A DNA stretch of 7,301 nucleotides. It comes from a virus. Taxonomy: Duplodnaviria > Heunggongvirae > Uroviricota > Caudoviricetes. The DNA is taken from positions 1 through 7,301 of the IMG/VR virus record IMGVR_UViG_2703718791_000006; one strand, 5' to 3'. The stretch's first letter is position 1. Every line of letters begins with the position of its first letter. The notes below the pieces were generated by a model. It had not been told where the DNA came from. It worked only from the letters and a program-made list of their open reading frames with translations, and did no database searches. This document shows, piece after piece, positions 2,896 to 7,003 of this stretch. The translations under genes and the position numbers were made by a program.

Positions 2896-3124
2896 CCCTC
2901 TACCCCATCTACCTGAATGAAATAAACGCATATTATTCAACATGATAAGTGGGTAGAGGGCTAGGTAGAAGGCTAATAAAAGCTCTCTACCTCTTCTACC
3001 TGATTTTATCAGTTTCAGGTAGCAGGGTAGACGGCAGGTAGAGGAGCCCAAAAAGCTATCTACCCGCTGAAAGCCGCGCCATTACTGACATGATGAGCAT
3101 TCGGGTAGATGGGTAGAGGGGGGG
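2896..3124. repeat. iteron array, candidate satellite replication origin
   Basis: Twelve copies of GGTAGA or its complement TCTACC, often inside a longer GGGTAGAGG core. Top strand GGTAGA at 2952, 2964, 3026, 3037, 3104, 3112 and GGTAGC at 3018; TCTACC at 2899, 2908, 2986, 2995, 3059. Copies occur in pairs or triplets 9-12 bp apart, in alternating orientation blocks, with AT-rich stretches at 2915-2950 and 3125-3160. Sits between the helicase and the ssb operon. Confidence 0.6.
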
Positions 3125-3165: not shown

Positions 3166-3480
3166 ATGCGCATACATCAAAATCACTTAACAAACATGCC
3201 AGCCGAAAACATGAATCAGGGGCGACAAATGACCAAAATTCGCAGAGACAGAACAGAGCCAAAATATAAAGCGTTAGACATGACTGAGCATACCTTAAAG
3301 GTGGCAATCAGAACGATAGACCGCCACACGCGGGAAGGATACGCGAAGGAACATCCCGACCTGATAAGCGCATTCATGACCACAGCGGCGGCAAACTTTG
3401 CCACGCTGACAGAACGGGAGATTGCCGAAGCGGAACAGGTAACAACCATCAACGTTAAAACCGGAGAGGTGGAATCATGA
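3166..3480 (+). CDS. hypothetical protein, 104 aa, coupled to ssb
   Basis: ATG 3166 about 8 nt downstream of AGGGGGTG. Stop TGA 3478-3480 overlaps the ssb ATG at 3477. Alternative internal starts exist. No family recognised. Confidence 0.5.
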   Translation: MRIHQNHLTNMPAENMNQGRQMTKIRRDRTEPKYKALDMTEHTLKVAIRTIDRHTREGYAKEHPDLISAFMTTAAANFATLTEREIAEAEQVTTINVKTGEVES

Positions 3481-3887: not shown

Positions 3888-3895
3888 ACGCACAG

Positions 3896-3919
3896 GCCGG
3901 AGAAAATCCGGCTTTTTGT
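3896..3919 (+). terminator. rho-independent terminator after ssb
   Basis: GCCGGA-gaaaa-TCCGGC hairpin (6-bp GC-rich stem) followed by TTTTT, 9 nt after the ssb stop. Confidence 0.6.
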
Positions 3920-4124: not shown

Positions 4125-4331
4125 ATGGCAGAAGAGAAAAAAGGCGGTGTTTCGGTGTACATAAGCCCCGAAATCGTGGAGGTGCTCAAGCAGCGCCACA
4201 AAAAAAACTATGAGGCTGGCGTAGCGGCTGGACTGGATCCGCTGATGACGCCGGAGCCGTCGATAGGTTCACTTGTGCGCTCTTATTTACTTGCGGCGCT
4301 TGGGATGCATAAAAATTATGGGGGTGAATAA
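4125..4331 (+). CDS. hypothetical small protein, 68 aa; possible ribbon-helix-helix DNA-binding protein
   Basis: N-terminal GGVSVYISPEIVEVLKQ fits a beta-strand plus helix pattern as in Arc/CopG-type RHH proteins, and a second helix SIGSLVRSYLLAALG follows. Stop TAA 4329-4331 overlaps the capsid ATG (TAATG). The fold assignment is a guess from sequence pattern only. Confidence 0.5.
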   Translation: MAEEKKGGVSVYISPEIVEVLKQRHKKNYEAGVAAGLDPLMTPEPSIGSLVRSYLLAALGMHKNYGGE

Positions 4332-5386
4332 TGGCAGGCAAAGCAACGGCACTTAACACTAACCAGCTTTTTGCGTACCTGAATCGCGGGGATATTGCGG
4401 AATTTAAATTTAGTCCGCTGTTTACCACGCTGTTTTTCCCGAAAGTAGCGACATTCAACACCCAAAACATCATGCTGGATAACCTGGACACCGAAGAAGT
4501 CACTATGTCAGCGTTTTGCTCGCCTATGGTTGGTAGCCAGGTACAGCGCGATAAAGGGTACGAAACCAGCACGATTAAACCTGGCTACATGAAGCCAAAG
4601 CACGAAATCGATCCAACAAAAACCATCATGCGCATGGCTGGAGAAGATCCGGCACAGCTTAACGACCCAACCTATCGCCGTATGCGCCTGATTACTGGCA
4701 ACATGCGCCGCCAGGTAAACGCTATTAAAGCGCGTGTTGAATGGCTGGCGGTAAATGCGGTAACGACCGGAAAAAACATCATTGAGGGCGAAGGCATAGA
4801 GCGCTATGAAATCGACTGGAAGATACCGGAAAAAAACATCATAGAGCAGGCCGACGGGAAAAAATGGTCAGAGCAGGACAAAGAAACCCACGATCCAATC
4901 TATGATATCGAACTATACGCCGATCAGGCTGGTTGCCCCGCAAACGTCATGATTATGGGCGCTGAGGTATGGCGAACGTTACGCAGCTTTAAAAAATTCC
5001 GTGAGCTGTACGATCTTTCCCGTGGTTCAGAGTCCGCCGCAGAGCTGGCCTGTAAAAACCTGGGCGAAGTGGTGAGCTTTAAAGGCTATCTGGGCGATAT
5101 TGCCCTTATCGTCTATTCCGGCAAATACGCCGACAGCGACGGCACCGAAAAACATTTCCTTGAGCCTGATTTGCTGGTCTTGGGCAACACCAACAATAAA
5201 GGGCTGGTTGCTTATGGTGCGATTATGGATCAGGAAGCGGTAAGAACGGGCGCAACGCAAAACATGTACTACCCGAAAAACTGGATTGAGGACGGCGATC
5301 CGGCGATTGAGTACGTGCAGACGCACAGCGCACCGCAGCCGGTGCCGGCAGACATTCGCAAATTTGTTACCGTCAAAATTGGTTAA
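4331..5386 (+). CDS. major capsid protein, lambda gpE family (HK97 fold)
   Basis: 351 aa, colinear over its full length with lambda gpE (341 aa) as recalled. Conserved blocks: FKFSPLF versus FKFDPLF; PGYMKPKHEIDP versus PGYVKPKHEVNP; DPTYRRMRLITGNMR versus DPAYRRRRIIMQNMR; RGSESAAELACKNLGEVVSFKGYLGDIALIVYSGKY versus RGSNSELETAVKDLGKAVSYKGMYGDVAIVVYSGQY; YPKNWIEDGDPAIEY versus YPKNWVTTGDPAREF. SD GGGGTGA upstream. Confidence 0.9.
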   Translation: MAGKATALNTNQLFAYLNRGDIAEFKFSPLFTTLFFPKVATFNTQNIMLDNLDTEEVTMSAFCSPMVGSQVQRDKGYETSTIKPGYMKPKHEIDPTKTIMRMAGEDPAQLNDPTYRRMRLITGNMRRQVNAIKARVEWLAVNAVTTGKNIIEGEGIERYEIDWKIPEKNIIEQADGKKWSEQDKETHDPIYDIELYADQAGCPANVMIMGAEVWRTLRSFKKFRELYDLSRGSESAAELACKNLGEVVSFKGYLGDIALIVYSGKYADSDGTEKHFLEPDLLVLGNTNNKGLVAYGAIMDQEAVRTGATQNMYYPKNWIEDGDPAIEYVQTHSAPQPVPADIRKFVTVKIG

Positions 5387-5397
5387 CGGGGGATTCT

Positions 5398-5733
5398 ATG
5401 AACACTCCATACATTGAGTTATTTGCAGGCAGTCAGCAGGTATCCACGACGCTGGTACATTTTGCCGCTGATGCTGGCGTCATTCAGGAATTTACCCCGC
5501 TGATGCTGGCGGACAATGGCGAGTTTAAGCCGTGGGATGGTCAGGCGTCCGGAAAGGCTGTTTATCTGACTTCGTACCCCGTGGACACGTCAAAGCAGAA
5601 ATCAGCACAGTGCTACAAGACGGGGATCTTTAATATCGCCGCCGTGAACTGGCCCGAGAGCGTCGACACCGATGCGAAAAAATGCGCCGCCTTTGCGGGT
5701 TCTGGCGTATCCGTTCAGCCGCTGGCCCGATAA
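5398..5733 (+). CDS. head decoration protein, lambda gpD family
   Basis: 111 aa versus gpD 110 aa. Shared blocks: TPLMLAD / TPLMLD, WDG, YKTGIFN..WPE / YKSGTF..WPE, KKCAAFAGSG / KKRTAFAGT. SD GGGGGAT upstream. Gene order is capsid then decoration, the reverse of lambda's D then E. Confidence 0.8.
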   Translation: MNTPYIELFAGSQQVSTTLVHFAADAGVIQEFTPLMLADNGEFKPWDGQASGKAVYLTSYPVDTSKQKSAQCYKTGIFNIAAVNWPESVDTDAKKCAAFAGSGVSVQPLAR

Positions 5734-6159: not shown

Positions 6160-6165
6160 GACAAG

Positions 6166-6188
6166 GCCGGAGAAATCCGGCTTTTTTT
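6166..6188 (+). terminator. rho-independent terminator after the capsid operon, abutting cosQ
   Basis: GCCGGA-gaaa-TCCGGC hairpin followed by TTTTTTT. Near-identical to the terminator at 3896-3919. Confidence 0.6.
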
Positions 6189-6265
6189 ACGGGTCCTTTC
6201 CGGCATATGGACCCGTTACGGGGCGGCGACCTCGCGGTTTTTCGCTATTTATGACGTTTTTCCGT
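6187..6265 (+). other. lambda-type cos site, copy 1 (cosQ, cosN, I2-like proximal cosB)
   Basis: TTTACGGGTCCTTTCCGG (6187-6204) matches the lambda right-end cosQ region. GGGCGGCGACCT (6221-6232) is identical to the lambda 12-nt cohesive end, and the 17-bp spacing between them is kept. The following CGCGGTTTTTCGCTATTTATGA closely matches the lambda left end CGCGGGTTTTCGCTATTTATGA. No ATGTCCGGTT-type repeats before the terS start. Confidence 0.75.
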
Positions 6266-6269
6266 GAAG

Positions 6270-6296
6270 GTGACACCACCACCACTTGATTAATAT
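6270..6296 (+). promoter_or_regulatory. weak candidate promoter for the small terminase gene
   Basis: GTGACA (6270-6275), about 15-bp spacer, TAATAT (6291-6296). The alternative TTGATT (6286-6291) has a poor -10. Low confidence. Confidence 0.25.
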
Positions 6297-6321
6297 TTAA
6301 CCATGTAGTTAAGGTAACATT

Positions 6322-6756
6322 ATGATTGATAAAGCTTGTTTTGTAAGTCAGCAGGAAATAGCTGAACATTTCAAGGTTAACAGAACCACTATTCGCGCAT
6401 GGACCAAACAGGGGATGCCGTATCTTAATGCGGATCGCGGAAAGTCCGGCGGTTATCACATCGGGCATACATTGCTTTGGTCTTCAGGTAAAAGCCATCT
6501 TGAGGCCATTGGATATCACGTAGAAACCAGTGCGCTGGAAAAAATTATGTTTGCCAGGCTGCTTTCATCTGAGCGTGACGAGTACTCCAGTGAAGAAACA
6601 GAACATCGATTTGATGAAGGTTTGCAGATTTACGGATATTCACCGGAAGATGTGAGCAAGGCACGAAATAAAATGGCTGGCTTTCTGGCTGGGTGGCGTC
6701 ATGCCGTAAGCGTTCGCCGTGCCAGCATGGAGCAATCAGCCGATACAGAACAGTAA
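6322..6756 (+). CDS. small terminase-like protein, phage Nu1 family (N-terminal winged-HTH DNA-binding domain)
   Basis: 144 aa. N-terminus SQQEIAEHFKVNRTTIRAWTKQGMPYL parallels lambda Nu1 KKQLADIFGASIRTIQNWQEQGMPVL. It is shorter than Nu1 (181 aa) and diverges after the HTH. It sits about 90 bp downstream of the cos copy 1 cohesive end, where lambda has Nu1. Confidence 0.75.
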   Translation: MIDKACFVSQQEIAEHFKVNRTTIRAWTKQGMPYLNADRGKSGGYHIGHTLLWSSGKSHLEAIGYHVETSALEKIMFARLLSSERDEYSSEETEHRFDEGLQIYGYSPEDVSKARNKMAGFLAGWRHAVSVRRASMEQSADTEQ

Positions 6757-6824: not shown

Positions 6825-6921
6825 ATGTCCGGTTTTAGTGTCTGTTTTTTGCGCATGTCCGGTTCATGGAAAGCATGTTTTTATATTTTTCATATGGTTA
6901 ACTTGCAGAGAAACCGGACAT
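6825..6921. repeat. three 10-bp ATGTCCGGTT repeats in a cosB-like R-I-R-R layout (candidate small-terminase binding sites)
   Basis: ATGTCCGGTT at 6825-6834 and 6855-6864 on the top strand and inverted (AACCGGACAT) at 6912-6921, with an AT-rich stretch (about 6876-6896) between the direct pair and the inverted copy. GGTTAACT also recurs at 6810 and 6895. Lies between the terS stop and the inverted cohesive-end sequence. Confidence 0.5.
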
Positions 6922-6924
6922 GGA

Positions 6925-7003
6925 TCCCGAAAAATTTTCATAAATAGTGAAAACGCGCGAGGTCGCCGCCCCGTAACGGGCCATAATTCCAGGAAGGACC
7001 CGA
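6925..7003 (-). other. second lambda-type cos site, inverted (cosQ-like, cosN, I2-like)
   Basis: Bottom strand reads CGGGTCCTTCCTGG..CGTTACG-GGGCGGCGACCT-CGCGCGTTTTCACTATTTATGAAAATTTTT. The cohesive-end 12-mer occupies 6960-6971 on the minus strand. 6956-6980 is a perfect 25-bp inverted repeat of 6212-6236, with imperfect similarity continuing on both sides. The cosQ-like element differs from lambda at a few positions. Confidence 0.65.

Follow-up and report, generated by a model that had tools for sequence, protein, structure and literature searches.

Gene Content and Island Context

The window (the whole 7,301-nt stretch of DNA that was analyzed) carries, in order, an Icd-like gene, small ORFs, a DUF4222 gene, a gene for a 582-amino acid primase, a further small ORF, ssb, and a 68-amino acid ORF. 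In its right part, homologues of the lambda major capsid protein E (Pfam E = 2e-52) and decoration protein D (Pfam E = 6e-18) are followed by ORFs of 137, 144, and 93 amino acids. A lambda-type cos sequence, termed cos1 below, precedes the 144-amino acid ORF, and a second copy, cos2, follows that ORF in inverted orientation (Table 1). The capsid-like genes (4331-5733) are accompanied by no portal, protease, or terminase gene, and neither terL nor portal nor tail genes occur in the window gene content. In CFT073, interference with lambda persisted after deletion of the capsid-like genes c1499 and c1500, and the packaged DNA was of phage size (PMC6092414).

The window matches the Escherichia coli chromosome along its entire length. 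STEC434 covers 99% of it at 97% identity, and CFT073 (NC_004431) covers 88% at 92% identity, at the EcCICFT073 locus. In both strains the matching block starts after a tyrosine integrase gene and the gene of a small HTH regulator and has chromosomal genes on its flanks; the STEC434 copy sits in tqsA, and the CFT073 copy adjoins roxA. The window is an EcCICFT073-type phage-inducible chromosomal island (PICI) with the layout of a Gram-negative cos PICI: it combines DUF4222, a primase gene with adjacent iterons, ssb, and capsid-E and decoration-D homologues, and the integrase and HTH regulator stand to the left of the match in STEC434 and CFT073. The left part of the window is nearer to other islands (97% to STEC434 overall), and the element is therefore a mosaic variant inserted elsewhere than EcCICFT073. 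Just 3' of the primase gene, at 2897-3119, are eleven GGTAGA(G/T)G-type iterons in both orientations, a cluster that fits the PICI replication origin described for the EcCICFT073 family.

The region from cos1 through the 144-amino acid ORF to cos2 is especially well matched. Its 886 nt are ∼99% identical to E. coli CFT073 and 99.0% identical to strain ZH063 (886/886 nt), and when the window, CFT073, and STEC434 are aligned, column identity averages 99% across 892 columns. The module is present in 83 of 5,426 complete E. coli genomes. When the protein encoded by the 144-codon ORF was used to search genome contigs in a collection with one genome per species, zero relatives were confirmed; the representative genomes are evidently without the island. 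By description, the satellites SaPIbov5 and SaPIbov4 resemble the window island in having a helper-type cos and a capsid-protein homologue, but they are Gram-positive elements with unrelated cos sequences and no Rpp mechanism. Two putative cos sites have been reported in SaPIbov4 (PMC6092414).

Table 1. Features of the cos1-rppA-cos2 region, in window coordinates
Feature	Positions	Strand	Remarks
Terminator-like hairpin, GGCCGG-AGAAA-UCCGGC + U7	6165..6188	+	RNA fold; ends the capsid-E / decoration-D / 137-amino acid block
cosQ of cos1, TTTACGGGTCCTTTCCGG	6186..6203	+	17/17 against lambda at equal distance from cosN; matches cosQ of Fig S1A (PMC6739421)
cosQ-cosN spacer	6204..6220	+	17 nt, the lambda length; 9/17 identical to lambda, ungapped
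cosN of cos1, GGGCGGCGACCT (12-nt cohesive-end sequence)	6221..6232	+	Exact match; equals bp 1-12 of lambda and phi80
I2-like segment, CGCGGTTTTTCGCTATTTATGA	6233..6254	+	bp 13-34 of the packaged left end; 21/22 against lambda and against phage 21
Island-specific cosB of cos1	6262..6402	+	CFT073 functional definition; overlaps first 81 nt of rppA
Proposed Rpp-binding site R3-PICI, AGGTGACACCACCACCAC	6268..6285	+	bp 48-65; proposal of Murialdo and Feiss 2022 (PMC9026076)
Conserved TTGATTAA	6288-6295	+	Next block after R3-PICI
rppA, 144 amino acids	6322..6756	+	ATG at bp 102 from first cosN base; 142/144 identical to CFT073 RppA
cos2 cosB	6825..6921	-	Three ATGTCCGGTT-type sites separated by A/T-rich DNA
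cos2 cosQ-like block, cosN (6971-6960), and I2-like segment	6938..7003	-	Exact cosN; 61/79 identical to cos1

A Lambda-type cosQ, cosN, and I2 Segment

The sequence-only reading had placed cos1 behind the terminator of a capsid operon, and RNA folding bears this out. The hairpin GGCCGGAGAAAUCCGGC and its U-tract have a folding energy of -17.7 kcal/mol (z = -4.1; 0/200 shuffles fold equally well), consistent with a terminator behind the capsid-like genes, and the first bases of cosQ are part of the U-tract. A consensus terminator scan did not list this hairpin and listed a weak stem within cosN instead. A near-identical terminator-like hairpin (GGCCGGAGAAA(A)UCCGGC and then a U-run) follows both ssb (3895-3917) and the capsid-like block.

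The relationship of cos1 to known sites was examined by ungapped alignment, anchored on cosN, to lambda (NC_001416, ends joined), phage 21 (M81255), phi80 (JX871397), and HK97 (NC_002167). Lambda and the window are identical at all 17 positions from -34 to -18 (6187-6203, TTACGGGTCCTTTCCGG, the cosQ block) and at all 12 of cosN; with the single mismatch in the I2-like segment, identity over bp 1-34 is 33/34. These alignments uphold the earlier claims that the 12-nt end and both flanking blocks match the lambda genome ends, that the cosQ-to-cosN spacing is conserved, and that the cohesive-end sequence is that of lambda. Across 6187-6265, identity is 66/79 to lambda, 62/79 to phage 21, and 64/79 to PhiR12_1, and phi80 agrees at 31/34 over bp 1-34. 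HK97, tried as a further relative of the cos1 left end, was rejected because its 10/34 over bp 1-34 is the value of an unrelated sequence. The phi80 record labels the bases of bp 1-12 as a 5' single-stranded extension, and the phage 21 record annotates an I2 IHF site within the bp 13-34 stretch. By analogy with lambda, terminase would nick the top strand of cos1 5' of 6221 and the bottom strand after 6232. The spacer and cosQ also form an 8-bp inverted repeat (ACGGGTCC...GGACCCGT), whose hairpin is weak (-14.5 kcal/mol, z = -2.1).

Could such a resemblance arise from chance or base composition and be without function? The exact 12-mer occurs twice in the window, at 6221-6232 (+) and 6960-6971 (-), and a one-mismatch copy, GGGCGGCGACCC, at 2270-2281 inside the primase gene demonstrates that chance near-matches can arise. 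That third copy is kept in STEC434 and CFT073 and has neither cosQ nor I2 around it; it is probably coding sequence that resembles cosN by coincidence. Three matches with at most one mismatch are nonetheless found against the 0.03 expected from dinucleotide-preserving shuffles, and a blastn search with 6160-6320 against 50,697 phage records matched 88 lambdoid phages, the best with an E-value of 6e-25. Set beside the ungapped identity to lambda, with its intact blocks, these values refute a chance match, an explanation to which we assign next to no probability. cos1 is confirmed as a real lambda-type cos site. Since it has the lambda cohesive-end sequence, a lambdoid large terminase is expected to cut it.

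Similarity ends to the right of I2. Identity over bp 35-110 is at chance level (22/76 to lambda, 20/76 to phi80), and cos1 therefore has no lambda cosB: the R3-I1-R2-R1 arrangement is absent, similarity to lambda or phi80 cosB is lacking, and a repeat scan found no repeated R-like element at cos1. With the lambda-type blocks present and R3-I1-R2-R1 missing, cos1 is therefore a lambda-type cosQ, cosN, and I2 joined to a foreign cosB. The cos sites of lambda, 21, and phi80 share with cos1 the cosQ element, its spacing to cosN, the 12-nt end, bp 13-34, and a gene for a winged-helix protein next to the site. In lambda, however, the downstream gene begins at bp 191 and the site is read by TerS alone, whereas the gene beside cos1 begins much closer to cosN and an Rpp-TerS heterodimer would be the reader. 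A further parallel is the cos of phage N15, which is described as having a single R3-like site ∼50-65 bp from the nick and no I1, R2, or R1, as in cos1, and as having its downstream gene similarly close by; it has a different R3 sequence and a different binding protein (PMC9026076).

The Adjacent Gene and the Island-specific cosB

The sequence-only reading had taken the gene downstream of cos1 for a Nu1-like small terminase gene, terS. "Nu1-like" is fair for the N-terminal winged-helix fold, but the gene is, to judge from its translation, rppA (redirecting phage packaging protein A) and not terS. Three observations lead to this assignment: the near-identity to CFT073 RppA, from which the window protein differs by H59R and G64R; the match to the crystal structures of RppC (6hlk/6hn7; E = 4e-32), compared with E values of only about 0.1-0.2 to structures of the lambda Nu1 DNA-binding domain; and a sub-threshold score to the Phage_Nu1 Pfam model (14.4 bits where the cut-off is 30, with an alignment limited to residues 8-37). 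Moreover, the first 50 residues of the 6322-6756 product are the RppA residues printed in the PMC6739421 supplement. RppA, at 144 amino acids to the 181 of Nu1, is without the C-terminal part responsible for oligomerization and binding to TerL (gpA). Arg21, Thr22, and Phe121 are all present in the window translation; the first two are needed for cos1 recognition, and the third was the target of the F121R dimer mutant (PMC6739421).

Sister islands can carry a different gene in this slot. TUM1886 (L007 2717-3259) and CNR85I8 (L008 2677-3219) have the same capsid-like genes and, in place of rppA, a full-length 180-amino acid Nu1 homologue. Its similarity to lambda Nu1 extends from end to end (36% identity, E = 7e-34), and a comparison with RppA found no similarity (E = 1.3). 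In both islands, bp 48-59 of cos1 read GGTGGTGGTGGT, the reverse complement of the ACCACCACCACC found at the same place in Rpp islands.

The interval between I2 and rppA had been described as carrying weak promoter-like sequence only. Two 9/12 promoter matches are indeed all that it offers in that respect, but it also holds the island cosB, including R3-PICI. Functional cos1 accordingly reaches further right than the 6265 at which the site had been ended, taking in the island-specific cosB at ∼6262-6402. The bounds of this cosB come from the 3' parts of primers phi80quimera-cosB-3m (6262-6283) and -4c (6381-6402) in supplement file 2 of PMC6739421. Within it lies the one R3-like site that Murialdo and Feiss (2022) suggested for Rpp, which spans bp 48-65 and contains an invariant core at bp 55-63 (PMC9026076). 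The motif of the proposed site, ACACCACCACCAC, falls at about 6272-6285, just past position 6265; the core reads ACCACCACC in the window, and the CACCACCACCAC motif is present there as a single copy.

Conservation among Rpp Islands

The comparison covered 24 IMG/VR loci with a gene for an Rpp relative (70-99% identity). cosN lies upstream of rpp in 21 of them, and rpp starts with its ATG at bp 102 in 20 of the 24 (at bp 104 in the most divergent). Alignment of the 21 distinct upstream sequences reveals as conserved blocks the cosQ core GGGTCCTT, the I2 block CGCTAtTTATGA, the pair ACACCACCACCAC..TTGATTAA, and the ribosome-binding site. The ACACCACCACCAC..TTGATTAA motif and its spacing are kept in all 21, including the relatives with 70% and 83-85% identity.

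Three islands of RppB type (L097, L098, L099; ∼1870-1960) encode an Rpp that is 83-85% identical and keep cosQ, the I2 block, and ACACCACCACCAC..TTGATTAA, while GGGCGGCGACCT is replaced by the mutually different sequences GGGGCGGGAGCGGCGC, GGGGTACGTGTACGCGC, and GGGGTCTGTGGATGCGC. A search of the phage collection with the divergent RppB-type cosN region returned only a satellite-like SerU-LTIIb record and one weak match, and no matching phage cos. Another variation concerns the spacer. STEC434 (L001 13120-13152, compared with window 6196-6220) and the loci L079, L080, L084, L087, and L095 have a cosQ-cosN spacer of the cos2 type (CCTTCCTGGAATTATGGCCCGT) in cos1, a pattern in the sequences that suggests gene conversion between the inverted cos copies. 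An exact scan of genome contigs for the pattern cosN + N41-43 + ACCACCACC was discarded as a source of further islands: its 68 loci all come from unrelated taxa, most of them GC-rich (Arthrobacter, Streptomyces, and Planctomycetota among them), and include zero enterobacteria. They are treated as chance matches of a GC-rich pattern in 596 Gb and as uninformative.

Correspondence to EcCICFT073 cos1

The feature is already known in detail as cos1 through genetics, structures, and a dedicated review, from an element that is 97-99% identical across the region. In Fig S1A of PMC6739421, the sequence labeled "EcCICFT073 cos1" consists of the copy followed by ...GAAGGTGACACCACCACCACTTGATTAATATTTAACCATGCAGTTAAGGTAACATTATGATTGATAAAGC and matches the window cos1, whereas "EcCICFT073 cos2" is the inverted copy with ATGTCCGGTT sites. 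The two cos1 sequences share their position, after the terminator of the capsid-E and decoration-D-like genes and 101 nt before rppA, and agree at 77 of 79 positions over 6187-6265. The two differences are in cosQ (TTTACGGG in the window, TTTATGGG in CFT073) and in I2 (CGCGGT in the window, CGCGGG in CFT073); both changes make the window cos1 more lambda- or phage 21-like.

The CFT073 site has been studied functionally. Fillol-Salom et al. (2018, ISME J) found that either cloned CFT073 cos makes pET28a transferable by lambda and phi80. Transfer of the island itself is lowered by deletion of cos1, raised by deletion of cos2, and abolished by the double deletion or by deletion of the helper terS (PMC6092414). 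CFT073 RppA increases transfer of a cos1 plasmid and decreases transfer of plasmids with a phage cos, and among chimeric sites only those with the cos1 cosB respond to RppA (PMC6739421). Furthermore, a phi80 that has been given the cos1 cosB requires RppA (Fillol-Salom et al. 2019, Mol Cell; PMC6739421). In the heterodimer of RppA and helper TerS, affinity for the phage cosB is lost and specificity shifts to the cosB of cos1 (PMC6739421, PMC9026076).

The Inverted Copy cos2

cos1 and cos2 form a 78-nt inverted repeat, 81% complementary, at 6190-6267 and 6925-7002, on either side of rppA. The ATGTCCGGTT-type sites lie beside the inverted copy, at 6921-6912 (minus), 6855-6864 (plus), and 6825-6834 (plus), and are absent from cos1, just as the sequence-only reading had noted. 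They are placed like R3, R2, and R1 in lambda, and the DNA that separates the first two is A/T-rich. As a whole, cos2 (7003-6825, minus; L003 3001-3179) shares 93.3% of its 179 nt with the cos sites in the complete genomes of the lambdoid phages PhiR12_1 (PV340549), PhiR12_2, PhiR12_2_star, PhiR12_4, and PhiR12_5. The PhiR12_1 counterpart lies between Rz and Nu1/A, and the match spans all three ATGTCCGGTT-type sites; cos2 is therefore a complete phage-type cosQ-cosN-cosB and not an island-specific one. The TerS of PhiR12 resembles lambda Nu1 only in its C-terminal half. Because the likeness is confined to that half, the PhiR12 sequences fit a TerS with an R-site specificity unlike that of lambda.

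The cos2-type cosB segment is widespread: 1,185 of the 5,426 complete E. coli genomes contain it. The O157:H7 copy was rejected as an example of the Rz-cos-Nu1 order, being part of a prophage remnant disrupted by an IS element; the PhiR12_1 context is clean. Sister islands have other cosB types in cos2: a phage-21-like one (ATGTCGGTACTTCTCGAA...) in TUM1886 (L007 about 3300-3450, minus) and, in the nine IMG/VR loci L088-L096, a third (GGAGGTTGTTG...ACAACAACCTG). cosQ, cosN, and I2 are unchanged across these types, and some Rpp loci are missing cos2 altogether. Given this variation, cos2 appears to be a copy of a genuine helper cos that can be exchanged; the cosB of cos1, from the comparison of sister islands, looks like a companion of the adjacent Rpp or TerS gene.

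The completeness of cos2 raises the question of which copy is the working site. One could argue that cos1 is a decayed duplicate without a functional cosB, and that the island is packaged leftwards from cos2. cos1 does lack repeated R elements, cos2 has the genuine PhiR12-type architecture and a cosB that is common in E. coli prophages, and both CFT073 sites were functional when cloned (PMC6092414). The opposite effects of the two deletions on CFT073 island transfer contradict this proposal (PMC6092414), as does the restriction of the RppA response to the cos1 cosB in CFT073 (PMC6739421). Moreover, the cosB motif of cos1 and its spacing to rpp are strictly kept across Rpp loci, but the cosB of cos2 is swapped among at least three types and cos2 is sometimes absent. 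A decayed cos1 is therefore improbable.

A second proposal is that the inverted pair acts mainly as a recombination substrate that inverts or homogenizes the rpp cassette, and that packaging is not its role. The inverted repeat around rppA is the obvious argument in its favor, and the cos2-type spacers in cos1 of STEC434 and several IMG/VR loci point to gene conversion. On the other hand, no invertase gene lies near the cos pair, and none of the 24 IMG/VR loci or 5 genomic loci has a flipped rpp segment, so a function as an invertible segment was rejected. In addition, the conserved bases are exactly those needed by lambda terminase, and a packaging role has been demonstrated in CFT073. This proposal is less probable still than decay of cos1 and deserves very little weight.

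Proposed Packaging Mechanism

Taken together, these comparisons favor the reading that 6186-6254 with the cosB at ∼6262-6402 would constitute the main packaging site (cos1) of an EcCICFT073-family PICI, packaged by helper machinery via RppA, to which we give a probability of about 0.9. For the window, the comparisons establish sequence identity, anatomy, and conservation, and the mechanism is carried over by homology from the published genetics and structures of an element 97-99% identical across the region.

Induction of a lambdoid helper would lead to excision and replication of the island. RppA, encoded directly downstream of cos1, would then heterodimerize with the helper TerS, and the hybrid RppA-TerS DNA-binding domain would no longer recognize the helper cosB and would bind the island cosB instead, most likely through the single ACACCACCACCAC site at bp 48-65. 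TerS is expected to bring the helper large terminase (TerL) to the lambda-identical cosN (6221-6232), where nicking would generate lambda-type 12-nt 5' cohesive ends. Packaging would proceed rightwards via rppA and round the island concatemer, and the lambda-identical cosQ (6186-6203) may support the terminal cut at a later cos1.

The place of cos2 in this scheme is a more tentative matter. Its sequence raises the possibility, somewhat less than evenly supported, that the island has two packaging addresses: an Rpp-dependent cos1, which would hijack TerS of the lambda, phi80, or 21 type, and a swappable cos2, which the TerS of a second and very common family of prophages would read directly. 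From its sequence, the window cos2 is of the PhiR12 or O157-prophage type, and helpers other than lambda and phi80 could prefer it to cos1. The description of cos2 as a copy of a PhiR12-type cos was not found in PMC6092414, PMC6739421, or PMC9026076.

Significance for PICIs and Their Helpers

The window is a natural variant of the cos1/Rpp system, with two cos1 bases and two RppA residues changed, and introduces no new principle. The system explains how Gram-negative PICIs take over helper packaging and block the helper, and such PICIs can carry virulence genes. It is also employed for synthetic PICIs and cosmid-like delivery particles. That cos2 reproduces the complete cos of a widespread family of prophages and is exchanged between islands could be of use in predicting which prophage can mobilize which island.
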